From contig NC_042998.1 of NCBI RefSeq assembly GCF_006345805.1, positions 174,034,001-174,098,000 on the forward strand: a stretch of DNA of 64,000 bases, read 5' to 3'. Origin of the DNA: Octopus sinensis (Eukaryota). The translations under genes were made by a program, and so were the position numbers. The notes under the pieces are model-generated. The model was not told the DNA's origin. It saw only the letters and a list, made by a program, of their open reading frames with translations, and made no database searches. Of this stretch, positions 18,205-60,340 are shown piece after piece (position 1 is the first letter of the stretch; each line of letters opens with the position of its first letter).

Positions 18205-18241
18205 ATAATTATTATTATAAATAAATAAATAAATAAATAAT

Positions 18242-19255: not shown

Positions 19256-19272
19256 AATAATAATAATAATAA

Positions 19273-19303
<31 letters not shown>

Positions 19304-27146: not shown

Positions 27147-27164
27147 CAGGAGTTCATATGTATA

Positions 27165-28863
27165 GAAGAGCCTCAAGAAATGCAAGAGGGACATGGTACT
27201 ATATAGATCGGAGGTGACGGCCCTGAAAAATACAGATGGAATACCGGTCAACGAGAAGAGCGAGATGGAAAAAGTTTGTGAAGACTTCTACACCAAGCTC
27301 TTTAAGTCTACCAGAAATGTCCAGCCGTTACCACCACTTCAACAGGAAGAAAACGTGCCACCTATCCTTGTCAGTGAGGTTGAAAGAGCTATCGGCTCGA
27401 TGAAAAACGGAAAGGCTCCAGGGAAAGACGGTATAACATCGGAGGTGCTAAAGTCAGGCAGAGAGCAGCTCTGGAAAATCCTCGCTGAGCGATTTACGCA
27501 CTATCTAGACGAGGGAAGAATTCCCTCGCAGTGGAAAAAGTCAAATACCATCCTGCTGTATAAGAAGGGCGACAGAGAAGATCTAAAGAACTACCGACCC
27601 ATATGCCTGCTGTCTCACGTGTACAAGCTGTTCACGAAGATAATTCTGAACAGGTTGTCACGTCGTCTCGACGAACAACAACCGAGGCAACAAGCAGGCT
27701 TCCGGAAGAACTACAGCACAATTGACCACATATTTACTCTAACGCAACTGCTTGAGCGAGCAAATGAGTACAAGCTGCCTCTTTGCGTTGCGTTTATAGA
27801 TTATGAGAAGGCTTTCGATAGCGTCGAAACCAACGCAGTGCTGAACTCGCTGCAGAGGCAAGGAATCGAAGCGCAATATGTGCAGCTGCTCAGAGAGGCA
27901 AATTCCGGATGCACCACCGACATAGCTCTACTGTCATCACCCATACGAGTGCCGGTCGAGAAGGGAGTGAAGCAAGGAGATACAATCTCCCCAAAACTTT
28001 TCACTGCATGTCTCGAACAGATCATCAGAGGCATCGACTGGCAAGGTGGTGTCAACATTAATGGCGAGCTCCTCACTCACCTCCGCTTCGCTGACGACTT
28101 CGTACTCATCGCTGAAAACATGGATCAGCTTCAGACCATGCTGACGGAGCTCGACATCAAAAGTTCTGCAGTAGGTCTCAAGATGAACCGCATGAAAACA
28201 AAGTACATGCGCTCAGACAATGTACCAACGGGTCGAATGGTGATCGGCAGTGATGAAATAGAGGAGGTGAGGGAATATGTCTACCTAGGACAGGAAGTAA
28301 ATATGTGCCGGGATGTCAAAAAGGAGATCTCACGGAGAGTGAGGGCCGGATGGAAGGCTTTCAATGGCATAAGGGATGTGCTCAAGGGAAGGTTGGACAG
28401 GACCACCCGCGCCAACCTCATTAACAGTGCAGTTCTGCCTGCAATGTTATATGGTAGTGAAACATGGCCTACCACAAAGAGAGAAGAGCAAAGACTGGTA
28501 ACGGCTCAAAGAGCCATGGAAAGGTCAATGCTTGGTATCTCGTTGAGAGAGCACATAAGTAGCAAGATCATCAGAAAGAAGTCCGGCGTGAGACATGTCA
28601 TCACAGAGTATACACGCAGCAAGTATAGATGGGCTAGACACGTCGCCCGGCTCACCGATAATCGGTGGACGCACGCAGTTGTCGAGTGGTACCCGCGTGA
28701 GCGGAAAAGACCACCCGGAAGACTTCCACGACGGTGGAGTTACGATTTCAGGAGGACGATTGGGATCACGTGGATGAGAAAGGCGCGATCCAGAGAGGAG
28801 TGGACATCGTGCTGTGACCAGCGGTGTCAAATGGACGCCTGACGGACTGGTCGGTCAAGGTGA
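27165..28863 (+). mobile_element. RTE LINE copy inserted in a (TA)n tract
   Basis: GC-richer block bounded by (TA)n-type repeats on both sides; very short 3'UTR after the TGA at 28842. Confidence 0.9.
27193..28842 (+). CDS. reverse transcriptase of an RTE-clade LINE (5'-truncated, ORF uninterrupted for 549 aa)
   Basis: KAPGKDG, KKGDREDLKNYRPICLL, QAGFR, FIDYEKAFDSV, GVKQGDTISPKLF, HLRFADD, YVYLGQ, MLYGSETW, C-terminal RWARHVAR...RPPGRLPRRW; no endonuclease domain present. Confidence 0.95.
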   Translation: MVLYRSEVTALKNTDGIPVNEKSEMEKVCEDFYTKLFKSTRNVQPLPPLQQEENVPPILVSEVERAIGSMKNGKAPGKDGITSEVLKSGREQLWKILAERFTHYLDEGRIPSQWKKSNTILLYKKGDREDLKNYRPICLLSHVYKLFTKIILNRLSRRLDEQQPRQQAGFRKNYSTIDHIFTLTQLLERANEYKLPLCVAFIDYEKAFDSVETNAVLNSLQRQGIEAQYVQLLREANSGCTTDIALLSSPIRVPVEKGVKQGDTISPKLFTACLEQIIRGIDWQGGVNINGELLTHLRFADDFVLIAENMDQLQTMLTELDIKSSAVGLKMNRMKTKYMRSDNVPTGRMVIGSDEIEEVREYVYLGQEVNMCRDVKKEISRRVRAGWKAFNGIRDVLKGRLDRTTRANLINSAVLPAMLYGSETWPTTKREEQRLVTAQRAMERSMLGISLREHISSKIIRKKSGVRHVITEYTRSKYRWARHVARLTDNRWTHAVVEWYPRERKRPPGRLPRRWSYDFRRTIGITWMRKARSREEWTSCCDQRCQMDA

Positions 28864-28911
28864 TATATACATATACATATACATATATATATATTCAAAT
28901 ATATATATAAG

Positions 28912-29616
28912 GTGTATAAAATGATTTTATACACAGAGAGGAGACCTTTGACAGGACTCCTTACATGCTAGAAAGGGCAGTTAAAACCCAAACCACGAAA
29001 AAAAAAAAGAATTCATGAGGCATGCTGCTATAACACCAGACAGAACGAACAAAAATCAGTTAATCCCGAATTCGAGTTTCTCTATTATTGCCAAATAAAC
29101 TAGTTTGGAATTTCTAGATCGTCAGAGAGATTGCTAATTAATGATTAAATATGCAGTTGCAAATACGTATCGAAAACACGTGCGTAAGACAGCCATATCT
29201 TTATCCGTTATGGATTCGAACTTAATGCGCAAGCGTAAACATAGTCCAGCATTAAATAAATAAATCTAATATTTTGTTCTATATACCCTCAGAACTATAA
29301 ATATTTTTATCGTAAATATTAGGGAAATATATTGAAGGAACCTTTTACCAGTGGTTAGCATGCCTAAATAAAAGTCATAAAACCTAACATATTTTTAAAA
29401 ATATAAAGTGTATAAAATATTTTTATACACAGAGAGGAAACCTTTGACAGGATTCCTTACATGCTAGAACGGGTAGTTAAAACCTTACCCACGAAAAAAA
29501 GAATTTATGAGGCACGCTATTATAAAACCAGAATGAATAAAAAATGAATATGTTAATCTCGAACTCGAGTTTCTCTATTGAATGCCCAGTAAACTTATTT
29601 GGAATTGGTAGATCGT
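28912..29616. repeat. diverged ~210 bp direct repeat (28912-29122 and 29408-29616)
   Basis: gtgtataaaat..ttttatacacagagagga.acctttgacagga.tccttacatgctagaa...tcgagtttctctatt...tagatcgt occurs twice. Confidence 0.8.
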
Positions 29617-29630
29617 ATAATTTACGATAA

Positions 29631-29681
<51 letters not shown>

Positions 29682-30019
29682 TACATACATACATATATAT
29701 GTGTATGTGTATGTGTGTGTTATATTATATTATATTATACGGGGTGCATTCCAGAAGTTTTGAGAGGTTTTTAGGGGAGGCATTCATAACTGTCCGATAT
29801 TGCTTATAAAACAGAAAACGGATTGGATTATACCGAAACTAACACCAAATATTTAATACAAAGTCACTAAAATTAAATCTCTTCTCATTAATAACAATTT
29901 ATACATACGTATATAAACCTTCGAATCCGTTCACAATTTATCAATTAAAGCAAGTGAAATATAATGACCAGAGATATTCACAAGATTAAATGTGGACAAC
30001 AAAGTTTCTCTTCGAGAAT

Positions 30020-31898
30020 ATGGAGTTTAAGGTTGAAGAATTTATTGAATTTCCCAGTGTGGAGCAATTAAGGATTTTTTAAAAATCAGAATTGTTGCTA
30101 TTGGCCAAACATTACTATATGGGTGAAGTTAAGTCAACTATGAAAAAGAGAGAGATTTTCAAAGTGGTTTTGGAACATTTGGTTGATGAAGAAATTTTCG
30201 AAGATTCGGCTTTGTCCTTGTTGAAAACAGAGAAAACAGAAGAGTTTGAGTTGAGGAAATTGGAATTAGAATTTCAAAAAGCAATAAAGGAAATGGAAAT
30301 TCAAAAATAATTAAAATTGAAAGAAATGGAGTTACAGAGTAGAAAGTTGGACACTCCTCGTGATCAGAAAGATTTTGATGTAGCTAAAAATATTAAACTT
30401 GTGCCTCCATTTAGTGAAAAGGATGATAAATTTTTCCTTCATTTTTGAAGAGGTGGCAATAAATTCGAGATGGCCTCTGGAGTATTGCACAATGTTAAAA
30501 CAAAGTGTTTTAAAAGGCAGGGCTCAGGAAGTCTATTCAAATTTATCGAACGAAGCAAGTTTGAGTTATGAGGTGGTGAAACAGGATATTCTAAAAGCTT
30601 ATGAACTGGTCCCTGAAGCATATAGACAAATTTAGACAGTCCAAGAAAAGAAGTGCGGATACTTATGTAGAATTTGCTAGAAAGAAGGAAAATTTGTTTG
30701 ATAGGTGGTGTGTGTCAAAAGAAGTTGGGGAAGATTTTCACTAATTGAGGCACCTTATATTATTAGAGGAGTTCAAACAATGTGTTCAATGTTGATGTTA
30801 AGACTTATTTCGAAGAGCAGAGAGTAGAACAGTTACAAGAGGCAGCTAGTTTAGCAGATGATTACTCTATTACTCACAAGCGTGAGTTCAAGCTGTATCG
30901 TTATTATCATCCGGATAATTTCGAGTTAGGCCAGACAAGTAAGTCAATTTATTCAGCTCGGTCAGGTTCGAATCCTAACAAGTCTAGTGGTTCAGAGTTA
31001 AGAAAGTCAATCAGTCCATTTGTTTCTAATTTTCCTTCAACAATTATTTGTAGATATTGTAGAAAGGCCGGCCATCTGATTTCAGAGTGTAAAAAGCTTA
31101 AGTTAAAAAATCAGTCACAAACCTTACCTTACTCCACGCTTTTGTGAATGTCAAGTCTCAGCCTACTTCCGACATTATTAACACTGAGGAGCAGTTTGTT
31201 TCAAGAGTTCAGTCACCAAAGCCTGCCGTTTTTGTTGAGGAGGGGTAATTGCCTTTTATTTCAAAAGGGTTTGTCTCACTTGAGGGTGATAAATCCACAT
31301 TACGAACCATTACTATTTTGAGGGACACAGGCGCACTCCAGTCTCTATTGTTAGAAGGTACTCCTCCTGTCTCGGAAGTGTTTTCTGCTAACTTTGATGT
31401 ATTATTAGAGGGTATTAGTGGAATTTCAGGTGCACCTCTTCATTTTGTTGATTTGCAGTCAGATTTTGTGTCTGGTTTGGTGAAAGTTGGTGTTAAGAAA
31501 ACTCTCCTAGTTTCAGGTGTAGACTTGCTTATTGGAAATGATTTAACAGGGTCCAAGGTTTTGTCTGATCCTCATGTTAGCATTGGGCCAAGCACTTCTG
31601 AGAGCACTGAATCCCTTCAGGAAATTATTCCTGGTGTTTTTCCCTCATGTGCTGTGACTCGTTCTATGGGTAACTCGAACTCGCAAGAGATTTCCAAAAA
31701 CATCTCGAAAGAGATTCCAGATATTTTCAGATAATAATTTCATATAACGACACCTTGAATGCCCCGGCCACTTTTCAACGCATCATGAATAACATCACTT
31801 CAGGGCTTCAGGGCATCGAAACCTATATTGATGACGTCATGGACCATTCTACTCAGTGGGGTGAACATTTAAAGAGGATGCGTACCCTCTTCGACAAA
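30020..31898 (+). mobile_element. Gypsy/Ty3 LTR-retrotransposon relic (Gmr1-like gag, CCHC knuckle, aspartic protease, RT fragment)
   Basis: LVPPFSEKD, QSVLKGRAQEVY, ILKAYELVPEAYRQ, CRYCRKAGHLISEC, ILRDTGALQS, DLLIGNDL, CAVTRS, NAPATFQRIM...YIDD; multiple stops and frameshifts; no LTRs found. Confidence 0.9.
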
Positions 31899-32268
31899 CG
31901 TACACATAAAATGTTGGCAAAAGCCAACAGTAATGCAGATTCCTTCATAAATTATGAAGAATTTGCAACTTTGATGGCTGGTGAGGATGCTCTACATTCC
32001 CGAGATAAAGTGAAAGTGGTGTTGTGGAAGCAGCCATTGTAAGCATTGTTCCTATCCGGAAACAAAAGGATTTACTTGCGAACAACTCTTGCTGCCCGCC
32101 ACCAGTTTTTATGTTTCTTGTCAACCTGGCTGTGATTGGTGTATTTGTTTATTACGTATTTGAGCTGAAAAAAAATATATTAAAGTTACATGGAGTACAG
32201 GTGTCCCTATTTGCAGTCCTTTGATATATAGTCCTTATGATGGAAAAGAATCATGGCGTTTTATTATT
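31899..32268 (+). pseudogene. intronless fragment of an EF-hand-containing rhomboid-related intramembrane protease (RHBDL-type)
   Basis: Three frames joined by two frameshifts: KANSNADSFINYEEFATLM (EF-hand), SCCPPPVFMFLVNLAVIGVFVYY (TM1), TGVPICSPLIYSPYDGKESWRFI (L1 loop WR motif). Confidence 0.8.
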
Positions 32269-33075: not shown

Positions 33076-33117
<42 letters not shown>

Positions 33118-33165
33118 TTAACAGAATGAGATAAAAATCCAAGGCTGTAAAATATTTCAGAACAT

Positions 33166-35880
33166 AATCATTGTTGGTCTTTACAGGCCTCCCCAAGCAC
33201 CTCTAAAGTGCTTTGAAGAGTGCCTTAGCAAAGTCAAGTCCTTCCTTCGGAAGTACAACTCCGGAAACATACTAGTGATGGGTGATTTTAACCTCCCTCA
33301 TGTGAACTGACCCACAAATACTATGAAGTTAGGCAAATGCTCTACATCAGATAGAGCAGCAGCAGAACTGCTCTTTAATCTAATGAATGAATACTTCCTG
33401 ACTCAGCTAGTGCTTGAACAAACGAGACAGAATAAAACGATCTGGTATTGACCAATCACTCTAGCTTCGTTCACAGTATTTCAGTTGAAAACAACTCTCC
33501 TCACAGACCACGACATGGTACTCTGCAATTTTAATTCCCGACATATAAAAACCAAACCAGCCAATCCCACTCCATGGCACTCATTTGACAACATAAACTT
33601 CCACAAAGCGGACTGGGGAGCAATCAGAAAGGATCTGTCTTTCATCGACTGGTCTTTTACTCTCAATTCCAGCCATATTGAGACAGCATGGCAGCACTTT
33701 GAAAACATTGTCACCTATACATGCTCTAAACACGCTCCCACGAAATCTACAAACACAAACAGAAACTGGCTCCCTAAAAAGAAAAAAAACACTCATCAGG
33801 CGCATCAAAAGACTCAACAAAAAAATCAACCAATTAAAATATTCCCACATACAACAACCACATTCAACAATAATGAAAAGGCTAGAGCTGGAAAAACTCC
33901 ATCTGCAGAACGACATGAAAACCTCCATTGAAAATCAAAGAGCTGTGGAGGAACAGTGGGTAATCAAAAACATCAAACAAAACCCAAAAGTGTTCTATTC
34001 TTATGCAAATAAGCATAGAACTACTGTCTCACCCATTGGACCATTGATTGATGATAACGGCATTCCCCAAAACGATACTAAAGAAATGGCAGAAATACTG
34101 CAGAAACAATACTGCTCTGTCTTTAGTGTTCCCACTGATATTGACGTAAGAGAAGCGAACGAAGTTGACTCTCAACATAAAATCTCAGACATAACCTTCA
34201 CTGCCACTGACATCATAGCAGCAATAAATGAGGTCAAATACTACTCTGCTGTAGGCCCTGATAGATTCCCCGCTAGTCTCCTGAAGGAATGTAAACACCA
34301 ACTTGCAGTCCCTCTGACCAACCTCTGGAGAAATTCGTTAGACGCAGGTTATATACCGAAACAGTTTCTATCCCAGTCAGCCATCCCGGTTTTCAAACAG
34401 GGAAACAGATCCCTCGCACTCAACTATCGCCCAATCACACTCACCTCCCACATCATCAAAGTGTTTGAAAGAGTGTTAAGATCAAGGATAGCTGACTTCC
34501 TGGAGCCCCACAAACTCCTAAATGCGAATCAGCATGGCTTTCGCTGTGGCAGGGACTGTCTAACACAGCTCTTACACCACATTGAAGATGTACTCAAAGC
34601 CTTGGGAACAGGTTCGAAATCTGATGTCATATACCTTGACTTCAGTAAAGCGTTCGACAGGGTAGACCATAATATCCTACTCTCAAAATTGGCAAATGTT
34701 GGAATCCGTGGAAAAGTTCTACACTGGATCAAGTATTTCCTGGCGAATAGAACACAACATGTTGTAGTTGATGGAGTCCACTCAAGCCCAGCAAAAGTCA
34801 CCAGCGGTGTCCCCCAGGGGACTGTCTTGGGTCCGATACTCTTCATAATCTACATAAACGACCTTTCCAGTGTCGTACATTACTGAAAAGTGAAAATATT
34901 TGCTGATGACACTAAGCTCCAGCAAATCGTCAATGAAGAAGCAGACCGAACTCAACTCCAGTCTGATCTATATGCTGTGAGTCAATGGGCAGACAGAAAC
35001 AAAATACAACTGAATGAGGGAAAATTTGAGCTGATGTATGTTGGAAGAAATTCCTCACTAAAACAGCCATACTCTCTTCCTTCAGGGGAACCGCTCACAG
35101 CCTCTAACAATATTAGAGACCTGGGTGTAATTGTTGATGACGATCTCAGTGGAGTGCACACCTCAACAAGAAGGTCGATATAGCTCGTAGGATGAGTTCC
35201 TGGATCTTAAGAACTTTCCGGTCCAGAGAACAAGGTGTCATCATACCACTTTTCTCCTCCTTTGTACGGCCACACCTCTAATACTGCTGCCGACTGTGGT
35301 CTCCCCATACAAGACAAAACATCCCGTGGATTGAATCACCCCAGAGAGCACTCACTAAACGAATTGAAGGCATAGCTGCTCTCGATTATTGGGATCGCCT
35401 TAAAGTCTCGAAACTCTACTCTCTCTAGCGTCGCCGTGAGCGGTACATCATTTGTACGATGTGGAGAATATACCGCCAACTTTGCCCAAACGACCTGAAC
35501 ATTAGCTTCAAGGTTCATCCAAGACTGGGACCACGGGCCATACGTCCCCTGCCCAAATCAAGATCACGGCATACATGTACACTACAACATAATTTCTTTT
35601 CCTCAACAGGCCCTGCCTTATTTAACATTGTCCCGAAAGAGATCAAAGAGGAACAGGATCTCATCAACTTTAAACGGAGTCTGGATAGATTCCTTCAAGG
35701 AATACCAGATAAGCCACCCATAATTGGATACAACTCACTCAACAAAAACTCACTACGTGAATGGACCATAAACAAGACTTGACTTAAACAGGATTCAAAT
35801 AATCCTATCACGTGGTGCTATTAAGTTAGACATGGCCTGGACCAATCATTGGTCGAAAGATATCTAAGTTTATCTAAGTT
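33166..35880 (+). mobile_element. CR1/L2-group LINE ORF2 (APE endonuclease plus RT), 5'-truncated, degenerate
   Basis: GLYRPP, VMGDFNLP, TDHDMV (APE); NYRPITLTS, NQHGFR, YLDFSKAFDRV, SGVPQGTVLGP, IFADDTKL; 3' tandem atctaagttt repeat. Confidence 0.92.
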
Positions 35881-35890
35881 ATATAAATAG

Positions 35891-35938
35891 GTCTTACAGT
35901 TGTTTCCGGGATATTTTATATATCCCTTCATCGGAGAC
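35891..35938 (-). ncRNA. type-I hammerhead-like motif, left arm of the fold-back
   Basis: Minus strand gtct-CCGATGA-a-gggatat/ataaa/atatccc-g-GAAA-CAACTG-TA-agac. Confidence 0.65.
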
Positions 35939-36210
35939 AGTGTGAGAGAATGGTTAAGCAATAGTTATTCTAAAGAAGATATGAAATAGAGAGTGAAGTG
36001 GAGGAATGCAAATAGACGTGAGATATACAGGGATATCGTATCTGTATTTCCATTATTTAGGCAGAATAGTATATATATACCATTCTACCAAAATAACGGA
36101 ACTATAGATACAATATACCTGCATATCTCACGTCTATTTTCATTCCCCCACTTCATGCTTTATTTCATATCTTATCTAGATTAACTATTGCTTAACCATT
36201 CTCTCACACC

Positions 36211-36258
36211 GTCTCCGATGAAGGGATATATAAAATATCCCGGAAACAGCTGTAAAAC
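36211..36258 (+). ncRNA. type-I hammerhead-like motif, right arm of the fold-back
   Basis: gtct-CCGATGA-a-gggatat/ataaa/atatccc-g-GAAA-CAGCTG-TA-aaac; palindromic stem III CAGCTG. Confidence 0.65.
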
Positions 36259-36778
36259 CTTCTCTTTATAAATGTTCTCAAATCTTACACAGCCTTGGAT
36301 TTTTATCTCATTCTGTTATTTTTTTATATATATACACACGCTGATATATAACCTACGTTGGACTCCTCATTCGCATAATCACTGAACCATGAGCTTAACT
36401 ATAGTCTGTCCATAGCACTTACTCAGCATTACCTGACACCTTTGGGTCTTGTTGACACCGTTACCTCTCATAACCTATATATATATATATATACTACTTC
36501 TACTACTACTACTGTGACCTATAGCTTCTGACTCAAAGGGATGTCACTTCTAGTCATTTTTGAACAAGACAAAACTACTTCAACCGCTGAGTGGAATTTT
36601 GATGGCACACCTATTTGGACTCTCAGAACTCATGCCTATTAGTTTTATTCTTCCTCCTCATATCCTATATATGTATATATGTATATATATATATATAATA
36701 TATATATATATATTATATAATATATATATATATATGTATATGTATATATATATGTGTGTATATGTATATATGTATATA

Positions 36779-36837
<59 letters not shown>

Positions 36838-39800
36838 CATACATATACATTTATATGTATGTATACCACGTGCAGGTACATTAGTTTTCTAACACAATCT
36901 TAGAAACTATTTTTCTATGAAGTGTATTTTCGCATCCGTTTTGTTTTGCATTTATTTGTTGCAGCAAATAGTCGACAGACGAAGTAGGAGCAGACATCAG
37001 AATGAAAGAAATTGACAAACGATAAATAGAAAGCAAGGGGAATAGTATGAAGAAATTGTGACAGAGAAAGGTAGCTTACCAAATAAGAGACAAGGTTCTG
37101 TATACGTACACAAGTTTAATAATGTCAAAAAGGTGTTGCAACCATACTTTAGAAATGTCTCCGAAACAATATAATCAAATAAATTTCGTTCCAAATGTAA
37201 ACCTTTCTGTGACAGAAACTTTTCCCAAGTTGAGTAAAGCGTCAAGAATCCAATTTTCTGTGCAATATGCTTGTTTAATTCAATTAGCTGCAGTATTCTG
37301 AGAAATGTTATTAAGAATGCCATACACTTATGGTACAGTGTAATGCGTCTCCAGAATTTATAATGTATCTTTGCTTTCTCTTACTACTCCGAGGAACAGC
37401 AAAATGTTTTTGAAAGATTGCTAACTTAGCAATTTTGTTTGTTTTGTTTAATTGGTAGGAAACAAAATTATTTTCCTTTTGTTCAGTTTCTATTTTGGTA
37501 TTGCTTTTATTTGCATTTTTGTAACCTAAAAATTTTGACGAAACTGTATTTATAATTCAAAGAGAGCAGATTTTTATTCCGTGATGTGACATCGAAAGGT
37601 AAAGTAATGGTTTCAAAATTAAAATTTTGTACATTGTAATAAGAATAGTAATTTTAAAGTAGTAATAACGATTTCAAAATAGCGTATAACCACTCCAAAG
37701 TGATTCAGGTGCAAAACGGCTTATTTAAAAGAAAATATAACTTCGAAAACATCATAACATCATTTGTAATGTCAACTTAACTGGTTAATTAACCAGACTA
37801 GCAAAAACGTCATCTCGTGGTTATACTATATCCCACAATTTTGATCATTTTGTATATTTATTGTTTATTTTTTTTATGAGAAGCTAGTACGACAATGACA
37901 CTCAGTGCTGAATTTTCGAGAATATTATCTCGGATGGAAACTTTTGTAACATCTGCAAAACTGTTTCCTACAACTGCATTAATTTCTACTGGAAAAATAT
38001 TTCCATTACTATGAATTTTATTCACGAGAAGCATTGATATTTATGTTAGCAATTTTTATCACTTAATCAGAAGTCAATACCCGTGGGAAATTTTATGGTC
38101 TTCGAGGATGGTAGGAGAGGATAGAATATATCCTTCAACCAGAGATCTGGACCAAATGTTTAAAACAGTATAAGCTCTGCTAAAGGCAGACCCAAGAACC
38201 AGGTGGTGTGAAATTTTAAATCGAGCGATGGAATAAATCTACCTTCATTTTACTACAACGAATTCAAATTTAGAAGGTTAATAGCAGGTGCAAATACTAC
38301 AAGGAATTTCATCAAACTCTAACCATTCGGCAAGTCCATAGGCTTAAACTGTTACTGAAATTATTGGCCCTGGAGGGATAAACGGCAAAGTTCACATTGT
38401 TGAAATTTGAACTTAGAACGCTAGACATCGGAATGACTACCACAATTCACTTCATCCGAAGCTCTGACGACTCTGCCATATTGCTGTTCGCCGTTTATTT
38501 GTCCAAGCTTCTCATCTTGTACCTTAAAATGTGATATAAATATAAACACAGAAATGCGAGATAAAATATAAACTTGTGGGACAATTCTTGAAGTTCGTAA
38601 AAGTCACGATTCCTAATATTGTTCGTATTTACAGGACTTAAGTATGGATATATTTCGACCTCCTTCAACTGCAAAATAATTGAAATAGAATAAGCAAACT
38701 AGAACTCAAATTGTTTGACAGTTCATGATTTTATATAGGTTGGCTAAAAACGTAACTTCATTTCAAAGGTATTTCCAAATCGAATCATTAGCAAACATTA
38801 AGTTTCCATTATTATGTACAGTGAGAATGGCCACTGTTTGGGCCTTTCCAATCGTGACAAGAATCATGATCTTTAATGTAAAAAAGTCATTCTTGGTCAA
38901 AATTTTCCAACATAAGTTTTTCAGTTGTTCGATCAACTAAACTCATTAAATTAGCATGCTAGTGGATGAATATGCCAGAGGGACGAACACATACACTTAA
39001 CATAAATTTCATAGGGAATCAATGTACACAGACACATGCGTATTCATCTATATGTACATGTGTATATACGCATGCATATCAGTGTGCGCGCAAGCACAAA
39101 CGCATGCGCGTTCACAAGGTAAGACACTTAAATCACAATTTCATACATGAGATGGGCTTTCAAAGTTTCCATTTTACCCAAACCCGGGACCTCGTGTTTG
39201 CGAAGTGAACTTTTTAACCATTTGGCCATACAGCACCAATTATGACGGAATATGAATATATTGTTCATACATCGACACATTCGTGTTTAAGACTATTGTA
39301 TTTCTGATTTATCAATAATCACTTTACTATGATATATTCATTCTTTCAATGTCTTTGAATTCTACAGAAGGGAACTAAATGAAGGGACAGTAACACTAGC
39401 ATCCAGAGGTGAGATACAAAACTTAGCAAGCCATCACAAGGCTATTCCAACGGGTCGTTACTGCTTATGGACAGCATTTCATGATTTGTATCTTTCTATT
39501 ACTTCATTCGTCTCTTTCCATTAAATACTGCTTAGCACAGCCATCTAACGCAACTCATTCAAGCAAATTGTATTCAGTCTACAAGTGATATTTGGTCATG
39601 CGATTGACCTATAGATTTTTTCTTGTGTTATTTCTACAACTGCTAATCAATCTGAAATGTCAGAGTCGTCGTTAATTGCTCTTTGGAATAAGCTGTAGTT
39701 TCTCATATGAGTCTCCGTCTATCAAATGTCTCATAAGAGAATGTTAGTTAATGATAATTGCTGCCCAGGACCGTACGAATAATAAAATTTACTTGTTTCT

Positions 39801-39971
39801 ATCTTGAACTATGAAACTATATGCCAATGCAATTGTTTAAGGGTGTATTCAAATGAAAGTAATTGTGTATGTATGTGTACGTGTACGCCTAACAATATAT
39901 ACACTCATGCATCTATCAATCTATTCATACAGATTTATAACAGAATAAATAATACATACATACATATATAT

Positions 39972-40055
<84 letters not shown>

Positions 40056-40058
<3 letters not shown>

Positions 40059-40205
40059 CGCAGAGTGGCTGTGTGGTAAGTAGCTTGCTTACCAACCACA
40101 TGGTTCCGGGTTCAGTCCCACTGCGTGGCACCTTGGGCAGTGTCTCTACTATAGCCTCGGGCCGACCAATGCCTTGTGAGTGGATTTCATAGACGGAAAC
40201 TGAAA
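40056..40205 (+). mobile_element. SINE family 1, 5' half, inside (TA)n
   Basis: gagtggctgtgtggtaagtagcttgc...gttccgggttcagtcccactgcgtggcaccttgggc. Confidence 0.85.
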
Positions 40206-40299
40206 CAAATAAAAGAGTATATATACGCATTTGTATATGCATACATGTATGTAATAAATATATATATATACATATATAAATATATATATATATTATATA

Positions 40300-40390
<91 letters not shown>

Positions 40391-40558
40391 GTGAATATAT
40401 ATATATATAATATTATGTGAAATAGAAAATGAATATCTTGTAGTAGATTAATCAAAAGTTAACCGATACCTTAGGCAAAAATCACAGCAGTGAACAGCAC
40501 GGTTGAGGTACAACCATCTGGCTTGCAACCGTGCGTTGGTGCGGATAATTGAAATTAA

Positions 40559-41135
40559 AACATTATTGGTGAATTGAAGAAATGAGCTGAACGCAGATTG
40601 AACAGAATCGTTTTATTTCATTCTACACGTGTTTTCGAAGGCCACATTACCACTGACAGCCGAACGATCAAACGCACACACGTACACAAAAAATGTTTTC
40701 TACCCCTACGCAACACACACATATAGAACAGTATACACACACACGTCTCTAAGTAGATTTTTCTCGCCCCTTATAAAACATCCAATTTCTTTAAATAGTC
40801 AGAATTTATTCTCGGTCACAAGAACATCTTACACCCTCACCCACCTGATGATTGACCGATGCCTGACCTGTTGAATTCTTCAGCCACCGGTTCTCAACAT
40901 ACACTGATAACTTTCCCATGGGCTCTTAGGAGCACAGTTCATATTGTTTTTTGCTCTGCCTCTGTTCTGTTTTTGTTTTTCCATTTCCTTTTTTCTTCTG
41001 AAGAAAGACACAATATGGTCCCATTATTCAATCGGATTTTGGTAATTTGTGCCTTTCGAAACACGTGTAGAATGAAATAAACACGATTTCTGTTCAATCT
41101 GCGTTAGCTCATTTCTCTTCAATTCACCAATAATG

Positions 41136-41137
<2 letters not shown>
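40559..41137. mobile_element. non-coding element with ~95 bp inverted repeats (40559-40652 and 41040-41137)
   Basis: aacattattggtgaattgaaga...ttctacacgtgttttcgaagg is the reverse complement of cctttcgaaacacgtgtagaa...tcttcaattcaccaataatgtt; right end abuts (TA)n. Confidence 0.85.
40990..41077 (+). ncRNA. type-I hammerhead-like motif with extended stem II
   Basis: CTGAAGA (40998-41004), stem II aagacacaa...ttgtgccttt, c-GAAA-CACGTG-TA-gaatgaaa; palindromic stem III; stem I imperfect. Confidence 0.6.
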
Positions 41138-41203
<66 letters not shown>

Positions 41204-41204
41204 G

Positions 41205-41251
<47 letters not shown>

Positions 41252-41511
41252 ATAATAAGAGTAAATAATTTCTATAAAGGTTTTTTAAAAAAACCACAAT
41301 TATTTACTGGTAGAATTCGGTATGTAAATATAGCCGATTACCGGCAGGAACTTCTGTAAAGTTCAGTATATGTATTGTATATAAAGAAAAAGGGACAAGC
41401 ATATATATATATAAACATTTAAATAATGAGGGAGATAAATTGAATATTAATTTAATTAATATCAATTTAAAATCTGAGAAATCAGAGAAAATTCTAATAC
41501 ATGTGTATATT

Positions 41512-41904
41512 TTAAGGGCTAAAAACCACTATGTGGACAGTCATATGCTAGAAATAGATCACCTGCGATCAAACTACAAAGAAAGAATGTTCTCTAGAGA
41601 AAAATTCAGCGGACACCAGAACAATAGGCGGACAAGACAGATGAAAATTATATAAAAAACAAAAATTAATCGCATACCGATTTCGTCTATTAACGAATAA
41701 ATCACTTACGTAATCCTTCGTCCGTAGGACTCGTCAGTACGATCGTTCCAAAAGCAATATAATTTGTAAAAAAACAGACACGTGCTTAGTTCCACCGATT
41801 ACATTGGGGTTAATTTCAAACGTATGAGTTCTTTCTTTGTAGTTTGATCGTAGGTGATCTATTTCTAGCATATGCCTGTCCACATAGTGGTTTTTAACCC
41901 TTAA
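41512..41904. mobile_element. non-coding element with 76 bp inverted repeats (41512-41587 and 41829-41904)
   Basis: ttaagggctaaaaaccactatgtggacag...aaactacaaagaaagaa and its reverse complement, about 3 mismatches by eye; (TA)n at the right flank. Confidence 0.88.
41669..41743 (-). ncRNA. type-I hammerhead ribozyme with canonical core
   Basis: Minus strand atcgta-CTGACGA-gtc...gac-GAAA-TCGG-TA-tgcgat: 6-bp stem I, G-C closed long stem II, minimal stem III, GUA cleavage triplet. Confidence 0.75.
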
Positions 41905-41956
41905 TATATTATATATATATATATATATATGTCAAATCAGTTTGATTCAAATTCTT

Positions 41957-41997
41957 TGGTACTCTTGAGTTTCAAGCGTGATGCTGGTCTTCAGTCA
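41957..41997 (-). ncRNA. hammerhead-like motif near the outer end of the left arm
   Basis: Minus strand tga-CTGAAGA-ccagcatcacgctt-GAAA-CTC-AA-GAG-TA-cca. Confidence 0.6.
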
Positions 41998-43275
41998 TTT
42001 TGAATTTGAATGACAGGAGTTGATTGTAATTACCGTAATGTTGGCTGCGATTGGTTGAGGGAGATCATGTGGTGTTGTGGTTCGATGTTGGTGTTTCGGT
42101 AGCAGTTAGCTGGAAAATACTGCATGGTGAACAGGAAATCGACCGTGCGATAGACAGGAAATCGACCGTGTAGTGGTCAGGAAATCGGTCAGTTTGTGGG
42201 AGGAGAGGTAGGAAGGGGCGGTATGTGCAAGCATATGCTTGTATTTCTGGGTGTGTAGACGCTTTCATATGGTTTTGCGCATGTCTGTATGCGAGCGTAC
42301 GCATCTATATATGGGCACGCATGCGTACTCCCACACTTACACATACATATGAACGGACATGCGCGTGCACATGCACACTCGCACGCACACATGCATGGTT
42401 ATACATGTGCATAACAAGCGTTGGGGATTGGTAAGCGTTGTGGATTGGTAATTGGTGGTTCTTCTCACGGGGTTGATTGGTGTCGGTGACCTTGGTGCAG
42501 GTGGTGCAGAGTAGCAACTGGTACTATGGTGGTATCTCCGGGTTGTCGGCAGTCAGAGGACTGACATTTGCCAGAAGGGCATACCTCTGGTGACAGCAAT
42601 AAGATAAATCGTATTTCTTGCTAATGTATACTGCGGGTTGTTGGAGGATATGCAGTTTTTTGCGGAGGCAGAGCTGTTAGTTGGGGGCGCCGGTGAATAT
42701 GGTGGCGCTCTGTCGAATATAGACCACTTGATGCTGACTCTCGCGCACGCGCGATTGCATGTGCACGTGCATGCATGTGTGCGCGCACACTGTTATGCAT
42801 GCCTATATGCACTCAAGAGTTTATACATATGTACATATAAATGAATACGCATGTGTGTGTGCATGCATATGTGTACACGTGTGTGCATGCGCGTGCATGT
42901 ATGTGTGTGCGCGCGCATGTCCGTTCATATATGTGTGTCCGTGTGTGTGCGTATATGGGGGCGTAAGCGTGCGTGCCCATGTACAGATGCGCACGCGTAT
43001 ATCAATGCAGACATGCACGCAAAACCACATGAACGCGTCTACACCCCCATATATACAACAATATACTTGCACATACCACTCCTTCCTACTTCCCCTCCAA
43101 CAACCTGGCCGGTTTCCTGTCCACCAGTGATCGATATCTTGTTCACCATGTGGTATTTTCCAACGAGCTGTTACCGATATGCCAACATCGAACCACGACA
43201 CCGCGTGACCTTCCTCGAGCAATCGCAGTCTATATTACAGTTACAACAATCAACTTCTGCCTTTCAGATTCAAAA

Positions 43276-43316
43276 TGGCTGACGACTAGCATCATACTTG
43301 AAGCACAATAGTACCA
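43276..43316 (+). ncRNA. degenerate hammerhead-like motif near the outer end of the right arm
   Basis: tgg-CTGACGA-ctagcatcatactt-GAAG-cacaatag-TA-cca; paralog of 41957-41997 with GAAA mutated. Confidence 0.5.
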
Positions 43317-43412
43317 GCGAATTCGAACCAAACTAATTGATGTACACATGTAACTACCAATAAATTTGCCGAGTGCCATTCTTTGGTTGCCCACTCACTC
43401 GTATATATATAT

Positions 43413-43640
43413 GTTTCTTTATTACCCACAAAGGGCTAAACATAGAGGGGACAAACAAGGACAGACAAACGGATTAAGGCGATTATATCGACCCCAGTGC
43501 TTAACTGGTACTTAATTTATCGACCCCGAAAGGATGAAAGGCAAAGTCGCCCTCGGCGGAATTTGAACACAGAAGGTAACGGCAGACGAAGTACGGATAC
43601 TCATTTCGCCCGGCGTGCTAACGTTTCTGCCAGCTCGCCC
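43413..43640 (-). mobile_element. SINE family 2
   Basis: Matches 8689-8918 end to end. Confidence 0.88.
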
Positions 43641-43641
43641 T

Positions 43642-43672
<31 letters not shown>

Positions 43673-43954
43673 ATGTGTGTGTGTATGTATGTGTGTGTGT
43701 GTGTGTGTTTGTGTGTGTGTATGTGTATGTGTATGTGTGTGTGTGTGTGTGTGGGTGTTTGTGTGTGTGTGTTTGTATACCAAAGTAATGCTTATTTGCC
43801 ACTTTGACATGGCTGTTCCGTACGAACCGACGTTACTACCATATTTAACTCCAAGAGGATGCTTCCTCAAGCTGGTTATCGAGGCAATCTGCACCGGATA
43901 TATATTGCAAGTAGGAGAGTGAACTACAACCATCTCTTAGCGACTTGCCAAGCC

Positions 43955-44001
43955 CACCAGATCGTCTGGTTTCGGGATATTTTTGCCCATCCACAGTGGT
44001 G
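43955..44001 (-). ncRNA. hammerhead-like motif (degenerate copy A)
   Basis: Minus strand cacca-CTGTGGA-tggg/caaaaatat/ccc-GAAA-ccagacga-TC-tggtg; perfect 5-bp stem I. Confidence 0.6.
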
Positions 44002-44249
44002 GACACCTATCCGATAGAGATTAATTCTTTATTACAGGCACAATGCTTAATTACAGAGGGGACATACAAAGACATAAAGCATAAGGAGGATGAATGTGAA
44101 ATGATTATATTTACAATGCAAATGAGTCGGCCATCTCGCTCCCGCTGCGAGATGAAACCGTGTATTCCTTTAACACGACCATTAGCCTTGCTCCGAGGCG
44201 AAACCGCGACTTCCCTCTTCACTTTTACCCTACCATAATAACCCTTTTA

Positions 44250-45750
44250 AACCCATGTTCATACAGTCCTTACTTATTTCTTTTCCTGTCTTAAAACTAA
44301 ATGGAAACGAAATGTTTTTTATCACAGTGGTTAAAAAATCTTTAGGAAACCTGTTCATTTAATAGTTTGAAATTTTACATTATTTTTCGTTTTTTTTTTT
44401 TTTCCTAAAAAGTTCAAACAATATTTCTCTCAGTTGTAGTCTTTACAAAATTATAATTGAATTACCACTTACTCCTTTCAAGTTGGGGTGTCTTATCTCA
44501 CAATAATTTTTCTTTTAGTTTGTGCTTTTCATGTTGTCTGTTTTAGCACCTATTTTCCTGCCGTTTTATGGCTTCTTGTATTTCCGCCTCGAAGTCTGTG
44601 TCTTCGTGTATTTGTGTGGCTGTGTTCTTGTATTTGTGTGTCTGTGTGTTTGTTTGACTGCAACTCTACGTGTTTCGTCTGTGTGTCTATGTCTTTAGGT
44701 TTCCGTAATTCTGGGTTGTCTCATTCTAGTCTGAATGACACTACTTTTAATTCCTTTGCTAGTACTTCCACTGGTAAATTTTCTCCGTTTCTCTTCGTGG
44801 ATTGAGTTTCTTTTTCCATTCCTTTGTACTTCTTCACTTCCACTGTCGTCGGTGACTTTCTTCTGTCTCTTTTCCTGGGTTTTACCTCCACCTAATTCCC
44901 ATCATATTCTGCTCTCTGCTTCTGCTTTTTTTCCGCCACTATCTCTTCCTGTACACTCTCTTCCACCATTTCTACTGCTGCTTTAGGGCATTTCCTTCTC
45001 AGGTGTCCTCTTTCATTGCAACCGTATCATTTTGGGAATCTCCTCTCCAACATTACTTCCAGCTTTTCACCGTTTGGTAATTCCACAGTTTCCGCCAATT
45101 CAATTGTTGAGTTCTGCTTACTATGCAAATGTTCAGGTTTTCACTTCCCTTCACCAGCTCTCAATTAAAACTTGCGACTATCACCCATTCTGGATCTATC
45201 GTCGGTGGGATTCTTCTCACCCTGACCCTGACGATTCTTTTACCCAAACAGTTCGGCACCAACGTCTATTTCTCTCCCAAAATCAGTCTGTTATCTTTCA
45301 TTTTGGCCTCTTCCTCTGATGCAACGGTGACTATTATAGTCGTAATTCCTTCCTCTTTTAAAGAAAGTTATTCCTTCACCTATTCGTTCCTTCAATATTT
45401 CCTCTATGTCTTCCTGCGGCGCGTGCTCCATTTTATTTTTATTCGAAAATGTTCTGAATATCACCGTCCTGCTTCCCAATTTTCTTTTTTCCTCTTCTGG
45501 CAGGGTCATTTTTATGTTTGACCATTCTTTTTTTATCATGCCATAATGGTTTGCTATCTTCTCATCCCACTCAATACTCTTCGGCTTCAGCACACGTGGG
45601 TCTATAGTATCTCGACCTCCAGTAGCTTCTGCGTAACTCTTCTTTTCTTCCATTATTCACTTTCACCCAACGATGGTGGATTCGCACAAAAATACCGCTT
45701 ACACTTGAAAAAACAACAAAAACCGAGTCTGTTAGAGACGGCAGTATTTC
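44250..45750 (-). mobile_element. L1/Tx1-like ORF1 (gag-like) relic
   Basis: Starts MEEKKSYAEATGG (45653); RIVRVRVRRIPP; zinc knuckle PK*YGCNERGHLRRKCP (CCHC with first Cys mutated to stop, about 44987-45030); A-rich coding strand; no ORF2 recognised; boundaries approximate. Confidence 0.6.
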
Positions 45751-45855
45751 ATTTCAACTCACAATATATAGAAAAATAAGTGACAATCTGTCGCTGATCT
45801 TACAGCAATCAAAGTAGCTAGTTAGAAAATTTCTATAAGAGATGAAAGTAGTAAC

Positions 45856-46000
45856 TATTAGGTTGTCCCAAAAGTTCGTAAACACTTACGAAAATTGAAT
45901 TTTTACTCGCCAAGTACTAACAAAAACAACATAAATTATTCCTCAAAATAAAGACTACTATTTTCCAAGACTTTCTACGAACTTTTGGGACAACCTTATA
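45856..46000. mobile_element. ~145 bp mariner-derived MITE
   Basis: TIRs TAttaggttgtcccaaaagttcgta and tacgaacttttgggacaaccttaTA. Confidence 0.85.
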
Positions 46001-46112
46001 TACTGAGAAGTAATGTTTGTCGCCACTTCAACATGGCTGTTCCGTACCAACTGACGTTACTGTCATTTTTAATCCCTAGAAGATGCTTTCTCTAGCTGGT
46101 TATCTATCCAAA

Positions 46113-46159
46113 CTCCACTGAGTATGGGAAAAAATAACCCGAAACCGGACGGTCAGGTG
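46113..46159 (+). ncRNA. hammerhead-like motif (degenerate copy B)
   Basis: ctcca-CTGAGTA-tggg/aaaaaataa/ccc-GAAA-CCG-GA-CGG-TC-aggtg; the consensus with copy A gives a canonical CTGAGGA core and all three stems. Confidence 0.6.
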
Positions 46160-47804
46160 ATCCTGTCAAGTCACTTGAGAAAGGTGGAGGGTTCGCTCCC
46201 CTACTTACAATATATATCGGTCTAGTTGAATGTAACATAATCGCTATAACTCTAGCCAATATTAATAGGGGCTCTATAAACAGGATAGAAATCGCAACAC
46301 AGTATTAATATTTGTTCGATTGATCATCTTTATTGTTCACTCTTTTTTTTGTCTTGAAGTTATTAATACAAATCCAAGATGGTTTCTTGTGTCTGTATAT
46401 GTATTGCATGCTAAAACTGATATATACATTTATTCTGTAATACAGCTTTAGCACATAGGAGTGCGGTGTAATTACTACGTCTTTTAATTTGATACCCCCG
46501 ATCTGGCGTTTGGATGCCTTTAACGTAAGAACACGGTGCGTTACATGCATTCGAGCCTGGTCTCCTGTTTGAGAATAAATTTCCTCCCGTATAGTGTACC
46601 CTGATAAAAGTCATGGATATAGACTTCCCACCAAACTCAGCAATGTATGTGTGTGTGTGTGTGTGTGTTTATGTGTGTGTGAATGTGTGTATGTGTGCAA
46701 GTCTGTGAATTAACTCTTGCTATTTCTCTCACTATGAACTTATCTTTTGTTTTCTTAATATTTTGTTCTCTTTCTCTTTCTCTCTTTCTTTCTCTCTCTA
46801 TTTTCCTCTTTCTCTCTCTCTCTTTCTCAATACACACACACGCACACACATATATATATATGGATATTGACAAACATGCATACATACATGCACACATACA
46901 TGCACACATACATGCACACGTAAATATACGGGTTTACGTAATCTATTTTGCAAATTCTTGTGCTTAATTTAGAAAAATCATTTTTAAAAAATAAGAATAT
47001 CTTTAAATATACCTTATAGATTTGTGCCTTGATTAAACACAGTCAAATATAATCCAATATGTTTATTTTGTGGTTGAAATCTCTTGGCATCAAATTATTA
47101 ACTACGTCTTTTCATATGTATAAATGCGCAGATACATGATTCTTCAGAATTATTTTTATACCAACTTATTAAAATAAAAGAGAACATTTCTGCATTGTCC
47201 AGTTTTTCATACGCTTACTTTACTAAATTCATCTCAGGAAATTGTCTCTCTTATTAATATAGTTATGTTACAATGGTGAGATTTTGGAATATGTAATTTC
47301 AAATTTATCTAGACAATTTTGATATAATTGTTCTAGATGGCTGCAGGGGTTTTCTCTCAAATCATAATCTTTAAATGATAGGAACACATATATAGTATAA
47401 TAAACCTAGAACTTCGTCTGCTTTGGTATTGTTTTTCTCATTTGAGATAAGATATATTATCATTATATACTGAAGTATTCGGGTTAGTCTCCTCATCTTG
47501 GTTGTTATAGTTGCAACGTTGGGCGGTTATACCTTTCAGTTTTCATGCACCCGTCGAACATTTCAGAACTTTCGAACTATTCCTTTTATAAAATCCACGA
47601 TGGTAAACGTTTTCATTCTTCTGTCAACACCAAGAATCTCTAACACTGCGAATATAAGTTTTGATAGGAGGCTAGTTTAAGCATAGAGATTCAGGTGGAG
47701 ACCATGAGTTCAAGTCTATGTCTGTAAAATAATATGTATTCTTGTTTACGCAGAAGGAGCAAATCACGTCACGAATAAGAAAATGAAAAAAAAAACTAAC
47801 TGAA

Positions 47805-56576: not shown

Positions 56577-56888
56577 TCAAAATACAAAGACCTGGAAATA
56601 GAGGTAACTAGAATGTGGAACCTGAAAACAGAAACAATTCCTATCATAGTAGGTGCATTAGGGATGATAAAAAAATATTCAGACAAATACATAACAAAAA
56701 CACCAGGACTTACAAACACATATAACATACAGAAAATTGCACTACTAGGCACTTCACACATCCTACGCAGAACACTTTCCATACAATAACCATCAGAGCA
56801 TCACAACAAATCACAGCACATACCCAAGGCACACAGAGCTGCGCTCGGTAGTGAAGTAAAAGCACGCTATAAAAATAAAACTACTGAG
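56577..56888 (+). mobile_element. R4/Dong family A 3' end
   Basis: [29 protein letters not shown]...ILRRTLSIQ*, 3'UTR, (AAT)n. Confidence 0.9.
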
Positions 56889-56911
56889 TAATAATAATAA
56901 TAATAATAATA

Positions 56912-56974
<63 letters not shown>

Positions 56975-56976
<2 letters not shown>

Positions 56977-58885
56977 TGCCTTGGGTATGTGTTGTGATTT
57001 GTTGTGATGCTCTGATGGTTATTGTATGGAAAGGGTTCTGCGTAGGATGTGTGCAGTGCCTAGTAGCGCAATTTTCTGTATGTTATATGTGTTTGTAAGT
57101 CCTGGTGTTTTTGTTATGTATTTGTCTGAATATTTTTTTTTATCATGCCTAATGCACTTACTATGATAGGAATTGTTTCTGTTTTCAGATTCCACATTCT
57201 GGTTACCTCTATTTCCAGGTCTTTGTATTTTGAGAGTTTCTCCATTTCTTTTAGAGACACTTTGTCATCTGCCGGTATTGATACATCAATTAGAAAGCAT
57301 TTTTTTTCTTCATGATCTCTGACAACTATATCTGGCCTGTTGGCCTTAATTTCTCTATCTGTGTGTATCGGCATATCCCAGAGTATGGTTGCTTTCTCGT
57401 TTTCTGTGACCTTTTCTGGTGTGTGCCTATACCATCTTTTTTCTGTTGTTATTCCATAATGTTGGCATAGCTTCCAATGTATGTAGGTTCCAACTCTGTC
57501 ATGTCTGTGAATATATTCCTTCTTAGCCTGGACTGGGCAGCTAGAGATAATATGATTTATTGTTTCTTGTCCATCTCCACATATTCTGCTTTGGTCTTGT
57601 GCTGCAATTAAAAATCCCTCTGTCTCTGCTTTGAGTCCTGAGCCTCTCAACCATTGCTGGGATTTTTCTTTATCTATTCCTTTTGCGTTTAGTTTAGTCC
57701 AGTATTTACCATGAAGAGGCTTTTCTTGCCATCGTTTTATCATGGTCCGTTGCTGTTCTATTTTTAGTTTGGATTTCTTTTGTTTTATAGCTTTTGTTGT
57801 TTCTTCTTCTTCTTCTTCTTCTTCTTCTTCTTCTTCTTCTTCTTCTTCTTCTTCTTCTTCTTCTTCTTCTTCTTCTTCTTCTTCTTCTTCTTCTTCTTCA
57901 TATCTATTAGGTGGTATGATTTCTTGTTTGTATTTGTCAGCTTCCTTAAATACTGAGAACAGTTTTTTGTTTTGCTCGTGTTTTGCCGCTATTTGTATCA
58001 GTTTTCCTTCCTTCTGAAGTAGATATTTTTGCAGTCCTATGGTGCTTATTTTATAGTAGTTTTCCAGTTGTATAAGGCCTCTACCACTTCTATACGTTGT
58101 ATATATAGATTTCGGGTGATGCATCCTAGATCCTGTCATTATTTTTCTTGTTTTCCTATCTATTTTGGTTAGTTCATTTCGTGTCCAGTTAAGGATATTG
58201 TAGCTGTAACTTATAACTGGGACAGCTAAGGTTTTAATACCTATTATCTTGTTTTTAGCATTGAGCTCTGTTTTCAGTATTGATCTAACTCGTCTATAAT
58301 ATTCTTTTTTATTTTCTCTTTCATTTGTGTGTGTTGTGTCTTATCTAGTTCATGGATTCCTAAGTATTTGTAAGTTTGGCTTTGGTCTAATTCTTTTATT
58401 TTATTGGTTTTATCTAGTGTTATGTTGCTACTCTTAACTAGTTTTCCTCTTTTCATGGTTACTTTGGCGCATTTTTCTAATCCAAATTTCATATCTATTT
58501 CTTTAGTAAATCCATGAACTGTCTTTAATAGTGTTTCCAGCTGTTTGTCATTTGCAGCGTTTAGTTTTAGGTCATCCATATATAAAAGGTGGCTGATGGT
58601 TTTGCCGTAACATTTATATCCGCATCCAGTTATATTTAGTATATCAGATAGAGGTGACAGTGCCAAGCAGAAAAGGAGTGGAGAGAGCGTGTCTCCCTGG
58701 AATATTCCTCTTCTAATGGGGATGTCTTTGGTTTTCATGAGTCCCTCTTTTGTTTGGAGGTGTAGGACTGTTTGCCATTTACTCATAGAGTGCTCTATGA
58801 ATTTTATGATTGTTGGTGCTACTTTATTAATGGCTAGTGTTTCGAGGATCCATGTGTGGGGGATGCTATCAAACGCCCTTTTGAT
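56975..58885 (-). mobile_element. R4/Dong family A, RT through endonuclease, with in-frame (GAA)n expansion
   Basis: AFDSIPHTWI, GIFQGDTLSPLLF, HLLYMDDLKL, YKYLG, LHGKY, ETEGFLIAAQDQ, HIISSC..RHD, PDIVV..IDVSIP. Confidence 0.93.
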
Positions 58886-58901
58886 AGCATTATTATTATT
58901 A

Positions 58902-58966
<65 letters not shown>

Positions 58967-58967
<1 letters not shown>

Positions 58968-59572: not shown

Positions 59573-59650
59573 GACGGCTAGATTTATGCTGTTTATAATT
59601 GATGTTGTTGTTTCGTCTATTTTGATTTTTGGGAGGTATTATTATTATTA

Positions 59651-59711
<61 letters not shown>

Positions 59712-59715
<4 letters not shown>

Positions 59716-60294: not shown

Positions 60295-60340
60295 GACACC
60301 TGAAGAAGGCTGGAGGGTATATCAGCCGAAATGTTGTGTT
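60295..60340 (+). ncRNA. minimal type-I hammerhead ribozyme (Penelope-type)
   Basis: gacac-CTGAAGA-a-ggctg/gagggtatat/cagcc-GAAA-TG-TT-gtgtt; stem III would be the palindrome AACGTT before a CpG-to-TpG change (inference). Confidence 0.72.

Follow-up and report, generated by a model that had tools for sequence, protein, structure and literature searches.

Four fold-back elements with hammerhead ribozyme motifs lie clustered in a repeat-rich, 64,000-nt stretch of the Octopus sinensis genome (assembly GCF_006345805.1, contig NC_042998.1, positions 174,034,001 to 174,098,000 of the forward strand; hereafter the window, in whose coordinates all positions are given). We consider it probable, at roughly 70%, that these elements are insertion footprints of Penelope-like elements (PLEs) in TA microsatellites, that is, a known architecture rather than a separate class of element. 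The four are termed A (33113-36475), B (40410-41140), C (41414-41909) and D (41931-43401); a fifth, E (43783-46221), is built differently. The original prediction, made from the letters alone, had grouped all five as a distinct class of ribozyme-bearing fold-back retroelements mobilized by PLEs. The inverted arms, the TA flanks and most of the hammerhead motifs are real. The distinct class was not borne out, since the arrangement is that of published PLE insertions, D probably derives from a coding element, more than one inversion point exists in C, and the ribozymes of A and D are predicted to be sequestered.

Results

Long inverted repeats were confirmed by alignment in A-D, and chance was rejected as their source. 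In all four elements both copies read sense outward from the junction, placing them head-to-head with their 3′ ends toward a TA microsatellite. The arms are 89% identical in A (166/186; 35889-36074 against 36075-36260), 95% in C (77/81; 41507-41587 against 41829-41909) and 82% in D (371/450; 41935-42412 against 42863-43338), while those of B (40556-40652 and 41040-41140) agree in 93 of 95 aligned columns but differ by several indels. Five of the eight outer arm ends directly adjoin a run of at least three TA units; over the window, by comparison, 7% of positions fall within 10 nt of one. This is in keeping with the predicted TA preference. The other three ends reach a TA run farther out, after 151 nt in B, 95 nt in C and 60 nt in D. 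B, C and D thus carry an extension on one side only, resembling the "tail" of PLEs; the boundaries first proposed for these elements left the extensions outside. B and C are also asymmetric: in each, the long copy carries the hammerhead, and its final 81-95 nt recur, inverted, as the short copy. A partial tandem giving direct pseudo-long terminal repeats (pLTRs) is absent from A-D, and only segment X of E is direct. As had been claimed, the five elements are mutually unrelated in sequence (no BLASTN match among them). No reverse transcriptase (RT) was found in any of A-E. The claim that none has a recognizable open reading frame (ORF) stood for A-C after six-frame translation of their inner parts and fell for D, with its endonuclease relic, and for E, with its decayed ORF.

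Evidence on the families came from contigs of four public runs (X1, X5, X4 and X15, of 24), one of which, X15, may be RNA; they were placed on 35800-46300 at 80% likeness, and depths were read for order of magnitude and shape only. A single-copy reference contig (36867-39939) has a depth of 47.7 in X1 and 61.1 in X5. Against this, depth in X1 is 330,000 and 348,000 in the bins of A, 68,000-269,000 over B and 139,000 in the first bin of C, and the by-bin shape is the same in X5 and X4 as in X1. A, B and C therefore belong to very high-copy, ORF-less families, which agrees with the non-autonomous nature proposed for them. Exact-pattern scans of metagenome contigs with the A and B motifs returned no loci.

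In the left arm of A (35889-36074, minus strand) the type I hammerhead is complete, with its core at 35934 and cleavage predicted after 35895; the hammerhead of the right arm (36075-36324, plus; core 36215) has a palindromic stem III and a weak stem I. Both arms begin at the same base, and they meet without a spacer inside a 10-nt TA palindrome (36070-36079). The left arm is split by a LINE (long interspersed element)-like insertion of 2.7 kb (33170-35880, plus, start approximate) that is not part of A; it is 97-98% identical to 61622-62970, its RT nature was judged by eye, and it is younger than A. Beyond it lies the outer stub of the left arm (33113-33165, minus), 53 nt that are 89% complementary to 36272-36324 and adjoin (TA)n at 33082-33113. 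A possible one-sided tail (36335-36475, plus) may lie between two TA runs; in X1, the bin 36151-36501 equals the arm bin in depth.

In B, a one-sided tail of ~150 nt ending at (TA)n (40410-40558, minus; depth 68,000-198,000 at 40458-40504 in X1) precedes the short inverted copy (40559-40652, minus), which by alignment and sequence keeps only the 3′ half of the hammerhead. The long copy (40653-41137, plus) ends at (TA)n and has a depth of 102,000-206,000 at 40710-41082 (X1); its hammerhead (core 40998) combines a long stem II and a palindromic stem III with a weak stem I. No truncation gradient is seen over tail, arms and body, and the tail is as deep as the body.

The hammerhead in the long copy of C (41507-41828, minus) is complete, with its core at 41737 and cleavage predicted after 41675, while the short inverted copy (41829-41909, plus), defined by alignment, has 81 nt, lacks the hammerhead and ends at (TA)n. 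A putative tail of ~95 nt (41414-41506, minus) would end at (TA)n on the other side, where a joint 40225-41421 suggests a repeat end beside TA. From its first bin, depth in X1 falls to 39,600 at 41632 and 2,200 at 41680; because of this drop past 41632, the hammerhead region must be far rarer than the arms, and most C-family sequence is without a ribozyme. A shorter form of C is a perfect hairpin, with no hammerhead, whose arms meet at the 12-nt palindrome TTCTCTAGAGAA (41590-41601). The corresponding joints (41601-41828/41829), each on one contig, have depths of 1,783 and 1,210 in X1, 1,598 in X5 and 30 in X15, and are absent from X4 among the joints listed. There are thus two or more inversion points in C, one of which recurs, and for this element the expectation of one fixed fold-back geometry across copies failed on the second, ribozyme-less junction. 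It is possible that the short hairpin is a library fold-back artefact. For strand changes, 15 of the 1752 contig joints were listed, and none of those 15 changes strand.

As judged from sequence comparison, D likely represents a coding element from the Hydra clade of PLEs that has been truncated to its 3′ part. Its long copy comprises a 3′ non-coding part (41931-42526, minus), which ends at (TA)n and carries a hammerhead (core 41994) that looked Hydra-like when set by eye against those in File S2 of PMC8557442, and a frameshifted ORF relic (42527-42740, minus), 5′-truncated near 42740, that by eye aligns with the C-terminus of Hydra-clade GIY-YIG endonucleases. The inverted copy (42863-43342, plus; it may start near 42745) has a decayed hammerhead (core 43279) and is followed by a tail of ~60 nt (43343-43401, plus) ending at (TA)n (43402-43412). 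Two minus-strand frames lie in the spacer. One piece of 50 residues matches P0001 (E 8e-12, 68% over 50 aa); the other matches P0001 as well, in a single frame (12/24), so that P0001 spans both D frames. Compared by eye with Hydra-2_Amil in Fig. S7 of PMC8557442, the relic has 8/12 and 6/9 identities in two blocks, and P0001 likewise resembles the Hydra rows. Neither the D pieces nor P0001 had a match in Pfam; word-index homolog searches with the D piece and P0001, weak evidence in themselves, gave none, and an atlas search with P0001 gave no usable one. P0002, an unrelated repeat protein, was discarded. Only the last ~70 codons are retained, and the part that would hold the RT motifs RWK/DKT and the CxCX5C linker is absent from the window. 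The (TA)n target and canonical hammerhead of the Hydra clade are both present, stem I of the left copy being weak. Depth of D in X1 is 38,000 at 41986, 3,200 at 42039, 656 at 42237 and 7,400 in the ORF relic. Separately, window positions 39027-39116 show a 73% match to 42760-42861 within D, a low-complexity repeat.

Hammerheads had been predicted in all five elements. They are complete in the left arm of A and in C; the core is intact with a weak stem I in the right arm of A, in B and in the left copy of D, the GAAA is decayed in the right copy of D, and both copies of E have one core substitution. Descriptors were composed after the motifs had been seen. The strict descriptor gave five matches in the window, of which two (A-left and C) lie within the studied elements, against a shuffle mean of 1.35 (maximum 3; 20 shuffles). 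The relaxed descriptor gave three matches at a score of at least 12 (A-left, A-right and 60300) against a mean of 0.03 (maximum 1; 30 shuffles), and eight at a score of at least 10 against 1.07 (maximum 6; 30 shuffles). The hammerhead motifs thus exceed chance at the top of the score range. The motifs of B and both E copies score in a range that shuffles also reach, and those of D and of position 381 rank below the top 25; these were accepted because of their anatomy, as the defects of one copy are made good by the other and stem III is a palindrome or close to one, a listed trait of PLE hammerheads (PMC4209133). A search of Rfam at E ≤ 5 returned no hammerhead family among 82 matches, all repeat-driven and below the gathering score. 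Monomer folds (z -0.8 to -2.5) for the most part showed stem II or III without a complete three-way junction, which counts neither way. In the predicted fold-back RNA, hammerhead bases paired outside the motif number 47/48 in A, 34/43 in D, 45/77 in B and 1/77 in C. It was formally correct that, with the motif in both arms, a transcript of either strand would carry one sense ribozyme, but in a through-transcript of A or D that ribozyme is predicted to be locked in double-stranded RNA (dsRNA), paired with its own antisense arm, and in B it is largely so.

Two further motifs had been noted at 381 and 60295. The latter (60295-60345, core 60300) is a minimal hammerhead with a 5-bp stem I and without stem III, has no inverted partner within the window, and ranks among the top three scores; the former has, by eye, three core changes and lies in a ~245-nt element (346-591) flanked by two TA runs, in which inverted repeats of at least 25 nt are absent. 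At 28900-29620, a direct partial tandem with a spacing of ~495 nt (80-88%) adjoins a TA-rich run and contains a minus-strand hammerhead-like motif (core 29125); from its sequence, its direct order looks retrozyme-like or pLTR-like.

E was rejected as a long fold-back: its two copies are ~80% alike, but segment X is direct and only segment Y inverted. Copy 1 of X (43783-43892, minus), tail-like, adjoins a TG/CA array and matches 46008-46118 directly at 80%. Copy 1 of Y (43893-44020, minus) was placed by alignment and descriptor and holds a hammerhead (core 43996) with a 6-bp stem I. Copy 2 (46008-46221, plus) consists of X followed by Y, with Y in the orientation opposite to that of copy 1 and a hammerhead at core 46118. 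The interior (44021-45855, minus) is multi-copy, with a depth of 260-2,760 in X1, and contains a decayed ORF of 121 codons (45291-45656), in which a zinc-knuckle-like motif can be made out by eye; the interior may be part of E or a nested LINE fragment. Its frames found no match in Pfam or in word-index homolog searches (weak evidence), and the best atlas score was 0.89. A nested miniature inverted-repeat transposable element (MITE) of 145 nt with 25-nt terminal inverted repeats (45856-46000, strand not assigned) is very deep, and joints 45855-45999 and 45856-46001 reveal empty sites in other E copies (17 and 9 contigs, X1). Read on the minus strand, E would be compatible with an order of inverted pLTR, X, interior, Y and X-tail.

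The original prediction had also pointed to a relic, at 3040-3572, of the proposed mobilizing machinery. This separate PLE endonuclease relic (3039-3572, minus) scores 18.2 bits (E 0.003) with Pfam GIY-YIG, short of the cut-off of 22.6, and its upstream CxxC and CCHH-type motif (by eye) differ from the endonuclease of D. As nothing ties it to A-E, it was rejected as a demonstrated partner. Elsewhere in the window, a ~1.88-kb tandem duplication (15553-17444 and 17428-19290) with 300-nt blocks 100% identical is either very young or an assembly artefact, and LINE RT, decayed long terminal repeat (LTR) retrotransposon and mariner-like fragments were recognized by eye at 27150-28860, 30000-31900 and 12350-13150, respectively. 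Several near-identical LINE-like 3′ ends lie in (AAT)n arrays at 56577-60100 in both orientations and form inverted pairs, which from their sequence appear to be a non-PLE source of fold-backs.

Discussion

The link to PLEs drawn by the original prediction is upheld, as the head-to-head arms and hammerheads match published PLE structure and the one-sided extensions and the ORF relic of D resemble it. We propose that in each fold-back the 3′ end of one family is present twice, in head-to-head arrangement, with the hammerhead carried in the terminal repeat. By analogy to other PLEs, an RT/GIY-YIG protein would cut both strands of a (TA)n target and extend both ends, and initiation at two RNA sites would give one copy with a tail and one without. 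Either two 5′-truncated cDNAs would then be joined, or the second arm would arise by snap-back at a palindrome, as may apply to the zero-spacer A and C (cf. PMC3846280). The fall of depth toward the 5′ side in C and D (X1) is what 5′ truncation predicts. A, B and C would be non-autonomous derivatives mobilized in trans. Transposition would proceed through the RNA of a single unit and not of the fold-back, because the latter is predicted to sequester the ribozyme (A and D) and offers no tandem partner for dimer cleavage.

Several points weigh against reading the elements as PLE footprints. Summed contig depth is not copy number. None of A, B, C and E could be matched to an autonomous partner, and the assignment of D to Hydra relies on comparison by eye, with profile searches blank. 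The tails are longer than the published 30-40 bp, and their outer ends are partly set by the next TA run. The C hammerhead is predicted to remain unsequestered in the fold-back RNA. The arms of A and D could stem from separate insertions. Finally, three features would also suit a mobile fold-back: the flat depth of B, which fits a fixed unit, the short-hairpin junction of C, recurring at ~25-37 times single-copy depth, and the symmetric start of A.

The last three features would favor transposition of B, short C and perhaps A as whole fold-back units, that is, a non-autonomous PLE-derived class with fixed geometry. We regard this as unlikely. The C junction lies on a 12-nt palindrome and may recur by repeated snap-back or library fold-back; moreover, it carries no ribozyme, was absent from the joints listed for X4 and differs from the junction present in the window. 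The probable coding origin of D and the predicted sequestration of the A and D ribozymes also argue against whole-unit movement.

That A and D each go back to two independent events, in which one family entered the same TA array in opposite orientations, is quite improbable. The arms differ by 11% (A) and 18% (D), the A junction is itself a TA run, the families cluster in TA arrays, and at the seven alignable D sites checked the family majority letter was found in the opposite arm at only three. In contrast, A-D are all head-to-head, with none tail-to-tail or direct, the arms of B and C are 95-98% alike in aligned columns, and the differences are mostly transitions, as expected from ageing; A is also older than the LINE within it. 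It is very hard to credit that C, perhaps with A, represents a DNA transposon of the MITE type with a captured or adjoining hammerhead fragment: the arms of C are 95% alike and end in a TTAA-like word in TA-rich flanks, and a ribozyme-less perfect hairpin exists, but a MITE has a fixed size between its terminal inverted repeats and a target duplication, whereas C has at least two sizes, a duplication unreadable in its TA flanks, an extension on one side only, a hammerhead oriented, like those of B and D, in sense toward the 3′ end, and a depth that falls away from that end.

On the footprint reading, the window extends the PLE content of an animal genome by high-copy non-autonomous families that are undescribed and by a further Hydra-like family, and indicates that PLE debris can pass for MITEs. 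The A-C families would also provide a good data set for how PLEs make inverted insertions, in which junction and tail positions over many copies could separate double-end priming from snap-back. We also entertain, tentatively, the idea that PLE machinery spawned very high-copy non-coding families moving as whole hairpins, with B a fixed unit of tail, arm, body and arm with a hammerhead, and C mostly a perfect, ribozyme-less palindrome of ~190 nt made by snap-back priming. If true, such families would look like MITEs yet stem from retrotransposons and would supply long dsRNA genome-wide, their tails of 60-150 nt would mark the two reverse-transcription starts of each family, and a new path would lead from retrotransposons to MITE-like elements. 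Literature searches over open papers, outside Repbase, Dfam and most supplements and with most hits judged from their listings, brought up no paper on mobile fold-back hammerhead elements.

Comparison with Known Systems

The closest known counterparts appear to be the endonuclease-bearing (EN+) PLEs of the Hydra clade, such as Penelope-13_HM and Hydra-1_Obim. According to PMC8557442, PLEs may carry an inverted 5′-truncated copy at their 5′ end and a tail of 30-40 bp, often at one end; nearly all Hydra families target (TA)n; and Penelope-13_HM has a hammerhead on both strands together with such an inverted copy. Our elements likewise bear a sense-oriented type I hammerhead close to the 3′ end, and A-D share the inverted head-to-head copy. 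The published endonuclease C-terminus, with CxxC-like and CxH motifs and, in the rows compared, no CCHH, is similar by eye to the relic of D. Unlike these PLEs, D keeps only its last codons and A-C have no ORF. The published 3′ end of Hydra-1_Obim shows no match to D visible by eye, and D is therefore of another family.

Penelope insertions share the head-to-head arms, junction palindromes, extension of one end and AT-rich targets seen here. Self-priming was proposed for their head-to-head repeats, and their pLTRs mobilize unrelated DNA in trans (PMC3846280). In vitro, an anole PLE protein cuts and extends both strands of AT-rich DNA, two RNA start sites define the tail, and the hammerhead is dispensable (PMC11167929). 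They differ from our elements in their shorter extensions (30-40 against 60-150 nt) and from A-C in that the latter families are non-coding and of very high copy. Chlamys PLEs such as MRC1 resemble our elements as non-coding PLE derivatives with microsatellite targets, but are algal, mostly head-to-tail and, as far as PMC8557442 describes them, without canonical hammerheads. Non-LTR retrozymes are defined as tandem repeats (PMC7229834), direct in order and with circular RNAs, whereas A-D are inverted pairs; even so, the retrozymes too are short non-coding repeats with type I hammerheads, and those of animals have been argued to derive from PLE termini (bioRxiv 10.64898/2026.07.22.740005).

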